Assembly: GCA_000004985.1 (NCBI GenBank)
Contig: GG738868.1
Origin: Naegleria gruberi
Lineage: Eukaryota
Direction: 5' to 3' (one strand)
DNA length: 64,000 nt
In this document: positions 17,721 to 17,772 of the stretch, in pieces
How positions within the stretch are numbered: position 1 is the stretch's first letter
Layout: each line of letters opens with the position of its first letter
Made by a program: the position numbers and the translations under genes
Notes under the pieces: generated by a model
What the model was told of the DNA's origin: nothing
Databases searched by the model: none
Seen by the model: the letters and a program-made list of their open reading frames with translations, nothing else

Positions 17721-17772
17721 GAGTGCCGGGAATTGAACCCGTCTGGAATGCTACCACTATACCACACCCGAT
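17721..17772 (-). tRNA. tRNA-like gene lacking the entire anticodon arm (~53 nt; acceptor stem, D-arm and T-arm only). A/B boxes are intact and a T5 terminator follows.
   Basis: Coding-strand sequence TCGGGTGTGGTATAGTGGTAGCATTCCAGACGGGTTCAATTCCCGGCACTCGA. The acceptor stem pairs. Box A is TGGTATAGTGG and box B is GGTTCAATTCC. ATTTTTG follows. Confidence 0.45.

Follow-up and report, generated by a model that had tools for sequence, protein, structure and literature searches.

What does a tRNA-like locus stand for when it still carries both internal promoter boxes and a terminator, and has lost its anticodon arm: a transcribed small RNA, a promoter module for a neighbor, or a tRNA gene that has ceased to be one? 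The question is raised by a short element in contig GG738868.1 of Naegleria gruberi, within the stretch of 64,000 nucleotides that was analyzed as a whole and is here called the window. A preliminary description placed the element at 17721-17772, regarded it as Pol III-competent, and considered a regulatory or decoy RNA or the head of a tRNA-derived SINE. In our reading, it is very probably an ordinary, lineage-specific, single-copy tRNA-Asp(GTC) pseudogene that arose by one internal deletion, as judged from the comparisons below.

A tRNA-like locus without an anticodon arm is indeed present, on the minus strand at 17771..17718 (Table 1). Its acceptor stem is perfectly paired, as had been proposed (7/7 pairs, one of them G.U), and the A box, the B box and the T5 run are all there as sequence motifs. 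The two remaining arms had been taken as kept, which is correct in that both are recognizable; however, the D-stem has an A12.C23 mismatch, and the T-stem is shortened to 4 bp plus an A.G mismatch, owing to the loss of C49 and C50. When searched on 91 nt alone, the Rfam tRNA model RF00005 aligned from end to end (model positions 1-71) with 20.5 bits (E 0.019), below its curated cut-off (gathering score of 29 bits), and with 18 model positions, those of the anticodon arm, replaced by 3 nt. Neither ARAGORN nor Rfam at curated cut-offs called the element, and RF00005 gave no match at this site over a 501-nt stretch or over the whole window. The minimum free energy fold of the 54-mer (-17.2 kcal/mol) keeps the acceptor stem and the T hairpin, and is not significantly better than the folds of shuffled sequences (z -1.62; 15 of the 200 shuffles were as good). 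The 3' end bears neither CCA nor an A-tail. A further T5 run at 17778-17782 (minus), 7-11 nt upstream of the 5' end, occupies the usual transcription-start site of a tRNA gene, and would stop Pol III read-through from upstream.

Table 1. Features of the tRNA-like element, of its surroundings in the window and of related loci. L007 is the metagenome contig carrying the intact tRNA-Asp gene discussed in the text.
Feature	Position	Strand	Remarks
Whole tRNA-Asp(GTC)-derived element	17718..17771	-	TCGGGTGTGGTATAGTGGTAGCATTCCAGACGGGTTCAATTCCCGGCACTCGAG; 53 nt + discriminator G17718
5' acceptor-stem strand TCGGGTG	17765..17771	-	pairs with 17719-17725; same in L007
A box TGGTATAGTGG, tRNA positions 8-19	17754..17764	-	identical in the intact L007 gene
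D-arm GTAT / AGTGGTA / GCAT	17748..17762	-	
5' anticodon-stem remnant CCAGA, positions 27-31	17742..17746	-	partner strand deleted
Deletion junction	17740..17741	-	C17741 = C32 or C50; G17740 = G51
Junction-spanning 20-mer of the element			GCATTCCAGACGGGTTCAAT
Shortened T-arm CGGG / TTCAATT / CCCG	17726..17741	-	4 bp; fifth pair = A.G mismatch
B box GGTTCAATTCC	17729..17739	-	14 nt after the A box; identical in the intact L007 gene
3' acceptor-stem strand CACTCGA	17719..17725	-	same in L007
T5 run, putative Pol III terminator	17708..17712	-	5 nt past discriminator G17718
Phe(GAA)-like tRNA with an internal deletion	39817-39877	+	Rfam curated cut-off, 39.4 bits
ABC transporter gene	11499-14261		
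5S rRNA gene, dispersed, full-length	15391-15509	-	Rfam curated cut-off, 105 bits; 2.2 kb away from the element
LRR gene	16430-17515		
DUF4116 (domain of unknown function) ORF	18318-20156		
Kelch-repeat ORF	20446-22152		
tRNA-Gly(TCC), intact	35721-35791	-	Rfam curated cut-off
Scaffold gap, 50 N	56872-56921		breaks ORFs on both strands; draft assembly
tRNA-Gly(TCC) in related locus L001	17636-17706		
tRNA-Gly(TCC) in related locus L004	18284-18354		
tRNA-Gly(TCC) in related locus L005	9386-9456		

We then turned to the parent of the element. A metagenome scan with the acceptor stem and a few neighboring bases as key, allowing a gap of 30-60 nt, gave one match: contig Ga0210044_10161042 (L007), AT-rich and 1,374 bp long, with a complete tRNA-Asp gene at 1231-1313 (minus). 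The gene reads TCGGGTGTGGTATAGTGGTAGAATTCAAGACTGTCAAATACAACAGTACTCTTGCGACCCGGGTTCAATTCCCGGCACTCGAG, followed by a long T run (T17 terminator). It has an anticodon stem CAAGA/TCTTG, a loop CTGTCAC with the anticodon GTC, a variable loop of 4 nt and a T-stem of 5 bp. A 12-nt intron, AATACAACAGTA, occupies the canonical position 37/38 and, according to the predicted fold, base-pairs with the region of the anticodon. Rfam scores this gene at 47.5 bits, while ARAGORN, as run, missed it.

Aligned with MAFFT, the element and the L007 gene are identical at 52/54 positions, namely 29/31 up to the junction (read 5' to 3') and 23/23 beyond it; otherwise, one contiguous gap of 29 columns sets them apart. 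BLAST returned two 34-nt matches at 94% identity, with E 1e-8 each; as each half thus matches an intact gene at this level, the resemblance of the element to tRNA-Asp is not due to chance. Acceptor stem, A box, T-arm, B box and discriminator are the same in both, and the 3' trailers are similar (ATCAATTTTT in the element, ATGAAATTTTT in L007), whereas L007 alone has the full anticodon arm with its GTC anticodon, the intron and the 5-bp T-stem. The two substitutions are a C in the element for an A in L007 at position 23 and again at position 28; they may be species differences and not decay, and the pair 12:23 is mismatched in L007 too. In addition, the U1-A72 pair and the discriminator G73 of the element agree with the established identity rules of tRNA-Asp. 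Judged by both halves, the parent of the element is a tRNA-Asp(GTC) gene and not one for Gln or Glu, so that the initial impression by eye, according to which Gln and Glu were closest, was wrong. A Gly origin was also considered and rejected, as the tRNA-Gly(TCC) of the window differs from the element in the D-arm and the acceptor stem, whereas Asp fits along the whole length.

L007 belongs to another organism than N. gruberi, and stands in here for the true N. gruberi parent gene. It is a reasonable proxy, since a tRNA gene such as that for tRNA-Gly(TCC) is 100% identical among four Naegleria-type loci. Moreover, the match with the intron-bearing gene of L007 suggests that tRNA-Asp genes of the Naegleria type may have a 12-nt intron.

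Relative to L007, the missing block runs from U33 to C50, which amounts to 17 nt of mature tRNA, or to 29 nt with the 12-nt intron included. All but one of the seven anticodon-loop bases lie in this block, together with the variable loop, the 3' strand of the anticodon stem and the two opening bases of the T-stem; the junction shows a 1-nt microhomology, its C being readable as C32 or as C50. The preliminary estimate of about 19 missing nucleotides was right as to the anticodon loop, the 3' stem strand and the variable loop; it has to be corrected to 17 nt of mature tRNA, and to include the two 5' T-stem bases.

Under the interpretation that we prefer, one copy of the nuclear tRNA-Asp(GTC) gene of N. 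gruberi would have lost U33-C50 in a single deletion at the DNA level; an intron, had the ancestor possessed it, would have gone as well, bringing the loss to 29 bp. The product, lacking an anticodon, would be unable to decode. The A-B distance would have been halved to 14 bp; TFIIIC may still occupy the B box, but normal transcription would be unlikely or weak, and the intact look of the flanking halves would reflect a fairly recent deletion rather than selection. The tRNA-Asp origin, the one contiguous deletion, the box spacing, the uniqueness within the DNA searched and the lack of retrocopy or SINE traits are shown by the comparisons, whereas lost function, little or no transcription and a recent age are inferred. 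The homology of both halves to an intact tRNA-Asp, the loss of the anticodon and the native gene flanks all speak for a pseudogene. Against it can be held that the 7/7 acceptor stem, the intact boxes and the terminator would be expected under selection as well, and that just two substitutions separate the element from its intact relative.

The two promoter boxes lie 14 bp apart in the element, as compared with 31 bp in the tRNA-Gly gene of the window and, once the intron is discounted, in L007. According to classic work on box spacing in tRNA genes, use of the A block is impaired at short distances. In yeast tRNA genes, the A-B spacing extends from 31 to 93 bp, with 32 bp as the commonest value and at the short end; the length of the spacer between the boxes affects the affinity of TFIIIC, and the residence of TFIIIC on DNA is mainly governed by the B box (PMC11724288). 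For type 2 promoters, about 30-40 bp is typical (PMC12498455). Compared with a type 2 Pol III unit, the element thus agrees in the consensus of its A and B boxes and in its T5 terminator, and falls outside the 31-93 bp range of A-B spacing. With 14 bp between the boxes, the intact motifs are no argument for normal TFIIIC-dependent transcription, which is the argument on which the locus had been called Pol III-competent. Its Pol III competence appears doubtful, although binding of TFIIIC via the B box alone is plausible.

That the remnant is nevertheless alive as a minimal A/B-box module, be it through an RNA of ~54 nt without an anticodon arm or as a recruiter of TFIIIC for the region 17900-18010, is in our view improbable, and even when a mini-RNA, a TFIIIC site and a promoter module are all taken together, the chance that any of them applies is small. 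The first of these possibilities, a transcribed mini tRNA-like RNA, we rate as quite unlikely. Such an RNA of ~54 nt would combine an acceptor/T-arm minihelix with a D-arm stub, and would be made from the A and B boxes via Pol III, TFIIIC and TFIIIB, processed by RNase P and RNase Z, perhaps given a CCA end, and used as a decoy or regulator, e.g., of AspRS, of the CCA-adding enzyme or of tRNA-modifying enzymes. The intact A box, B box and T5, the fully paired acceptor stem and a predicted fold that keeps this stem and the T hairpin are consistent with it. Furthermore, the oligo-T runs upstream would shield the element from read-through, as suits an independent unit, and trypanosomatids are known to transcribe tRNA-like elements of non-cloverleaf form (PMC4950102). 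On the other hand, the gap of 14 bp between the boxes is less than half of the shortest natural spacing reported, the fold is not significantly better than those of shuffles, the T-stem is down to 4 bp, and neither a further copy nor a conserved counterpart turned up in the searched loci and metagenomes. A sister pseudogene in the same window, to which we return below, shows that such deletions simply happen.

The region at 17900-18010, upstream of the element, calls for a separate account. The hairpin and the T9 run that had been noted about 120 nt away are real: an imperfect hairpin occupies 17947-18002, with the lower stem GCCCTCTTG/CAAGAGGGC, a second one with a perfect 9-bp stem (17912-17947) abuts it, and the T9 run at 17899-17891 (minus) lies 3' of the hairpins and 120 nt from the 5' end of the element. 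The 9-mer GCCCTCTTG was found in the two hairpin arms only. On the minus strand, the folding energy of 17885-18015 is -36.3 kcal/mol, and against shuffles the hairpin region reaches z -3.7 on the minus and -4.1 on the plus strand. There is no internal T4 on the minus strand, whereas the plus strand has one at 17932-17935. With no T4 inside and the T9 behind it, the minus strand looks as would be expected of a Pol III-type ncRNA of ~115 nt. The hairpin element sits in the probable 3' UTR of the DUF4116 ORF; it has no copy elsewhere and no Rfam family, and a search with Rfam at E<=10 over 17600-18100 gave chance-level matches only, snoRNA and miRNA families included. Between the hairpins and the tRNA remnant, the minus strand has four oligo-T runs, T9 counted. 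Nothing in the sequence links the hairpin element to the tRNA remnant, and it stays an unexplained side observation.

A functional link between the two has nevertheless to be weighed, in which the remnant would serve as an extragenic A/B-box promoter or as a landing pad for TFIIIC next to another gene. Several models exist for this: the promoter of divergent snRNA genes in trypanosomatids, a downstream B box such as that of yeast SNR6, here serving 17900-18010, or an ETC-type boundary (extra TFIIIC, B-box-only) upstream of the LRR gene. The closest precedent for a function lies in Euglenozoa, a sister lineage: trypanosomatids, like Naegleria, are members of Discoba, and their snRNA transcription needs tRNA-like A and B boxes (PMC4950102). 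At 120-250 nt from the remnant, a significantly structured element, with z about -4 whichever strand is folded, is followed by a T9 run, and the B box mainly governs how long TFIIIC resides on DNA (PMC11724288). Nevertheless, the place where an snRNA would be expected to start, ~17869 (+), starts nothing that Rfam knows at E<=10, a T4 on the plus strand interrupts the structured element, and no A-box-like motif was seen in the hairpin element by eye. We consider this very unlikely; if it were true that the remnant recruits TFIIIC for 17900-18010, a promoter logic of the trypanosomatid tRNA-like kind would reach Heterolobosea.

A second internally deleted tRNA in the window, Phe(GAA)-like, bears on how such loci come about. 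It has lost the T-loop and the 3' strand of the T-stem, and hence has no B box; compared by eye with a canonical tRNA-Phe, the deletion measures ~12 nt and lies between GGT microhomologies. Moreover, its acceptor stem has a G2.G71 mismatch, and no oligo-T follows directly downstream. Small internal deletions in tRNA genes thus evidently arise and persist in the N. gruberi genome. The same pair of loci could be read as an artefact of cloning or assembly, in which case the tRNA-Asp gene would be intact in the true genome and would have lost its 29 bp only on the way to the sequence. In support of this, the assembly is a draft with a 50-N scaffold gap in the window, and both tRNA-like loci lack a hairpin loop together with its 3' strand. 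However, the point mismatch in the acceptor stem of the Phe-like locus indicates real decay, and two more differences separate the element from its intact relative. Assembly errors do not typically take the form of clean internal deletions, here of 12 and 29 bp, at short sites that are not palindromic. An artefact is accordingly given very little weight here.

The preliminary description had held that a unique, decaying locus without expression would amount to an ordinary pseudogene. Uniqueness applies within the DNA searched: the window, 10 related loci and two metagenome scans yielded no further copy. A metagenome scan requiring the element's own D-arm and T-arm gave zero matches, as did a scan of viral sequences, and the sole match in bacterial and archaeal genomes was a chance one, inside GC-rich bacterial coding DNA. 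That the element instead forms the front part of a tRNA-derived SINE, or is a tRNA fragment inserted by retroposition, for which its tRNA origin and its A and B boxes could be quoted, can practically be dismissed, given that T5 only 5 nt past the discriminator leaves no body or tail, that CCA and A-tail are missing, that the longest repeat shared by the flanks is of 7 nt (a level reached in 77% of shuffled flanks, hence no target-site duplication beyond chance), that no other copy turned up in the window, the related loci or the metagenomes, and that the 3' trailer resembles that of the genuine gene in L007. A split or permuted tRNA gene was ruled out too, as no other stretch of the window encodes the lost segment: searches for the anticodon segment (CTGTCA...TCTGG/TCTTG, or a motif of 3' stem plus variable loop) met only three unrelated sites, all inside coding regions.

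Comparison with known systems places the element closest to the nuclear tRNA pseudogenes that tRNAscan-SE labels 'Pseudo', with which it shares a true tRNA-gene origin, native flanks, promoter motifs, oligo-T, a lost decoding part and a single locus. It is more damaged than most called pseudogenes, with a whole arm gone (20.5 vs 29 bits), and is missed by standard finders, yet its remaining parts are almost undecayed. The tRNA-like elements of trypanosomatids, such as that of U2 in L. major, resemble it as tRNA-derived, non-cloverleaf sequences that have kept A and B boxes, and likewise belong to a discobid protist; they are conserved across 19 species and required according to mutagenesis, some of them are transcribed as short unstable RNAs, and their box A stands 104-106 bp upstream of a divergent snRNA gene, with the boxes ~45 bp apart (PMC4950102). 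In contrast, no snRNA is found at the expected place next to the element, and its boxes are 14 bp apart.

The mascRNA/menRNA family (RF01684) is likewise small, tRNA-shaped and non-decoding, but its members keep an equivalent of the anticodon stem, which the element lacks, and are cut from long Pol II transcripts; RF01684 gave a trivial match of 10.6 bits to the element, covering the T hairpin only. Similarly, tRNA-derived SINEs are tRNA-related and have internal Pol III promoter motifs, but they come in many copies, with a body and tail unrelated to tRNA and with target-site duplications, none of which was found for the element. Finally, armless mitochondrial tRNAs of nematodes and mites are of similar size (~45-55 nt) and have lost the D and/or the T arm. 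To our knowledge, they always retain the anticodon arm, as they still decode; the element is nuclear, and has lost exactly the arm that they retain.

By itself, the element is of little importance, being one more tRNA pseudogene among ~900 tRNA-type loci. In N. gruberi, tRNAscan-SE returned 924 hits, i.e., 883 tRNAs and 41 pseudogenes, in 41 Mb, or a tDNA roughly every 44 kb (PMC2888827, suppl. 2). Remnants without an arm evade the standard tRNA finders, and pseudogene counts such as these 41 are therefore lower bounds. If the element should be transcribed in spite of its 14-bp A-B spacing, it would serve as a natural experiment on the shortest spacing that TFIIIC can use.

The window around the element has ~33% GC and dense, long ORFs that are apparently intron-free. 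Its Kelch-repeat ORF is 100% identical to a predicted protein of N. gruberi, which marks the window as nuclear DNA of this species. Loci anchored on the Kelch gene in N. fowleri, N. lovaniensis, a heterolobosean from ENA and Willaertia have a common Kelch-kinase-dynamin order, and contain neither a DUF4116, LRR or ABC transporter gene nor a copy of the element. Orthologues of the ABC transporter are 70-73% identical to that of the window; their neighbors differ from those in the window, and no tRNA or 5S rRNA gene lies near them in the ABC-anchored loci. With the adjacent DUF4116 protein as query, a homologue search returned distant paralogues only, and no orthologue. As judged by gene order, the segment from 14.3 to 20.4 kb, which contains the 5S rRNA gene, the tRNA remnant and two genes from expanded families, is arranged in a way peculiar to N. 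gruberi.

Gene order breaks at both ends of 14262-20445, which has no counterpart in the ABC- or Kelch-anchored loci of other Naegleria. Farther along, the tRNA-Gly(TCC) gene is 100% identical in N. gruberi, N. fowleri, N. lovaniensis and the heterolobosean of the ENA metagenome. In N. gruberi, this gene and those for SPRING1-like and Sen54-like proteins lie on the opposite strand relative to the Kelch gene, a strand switch that suggests an inversion.
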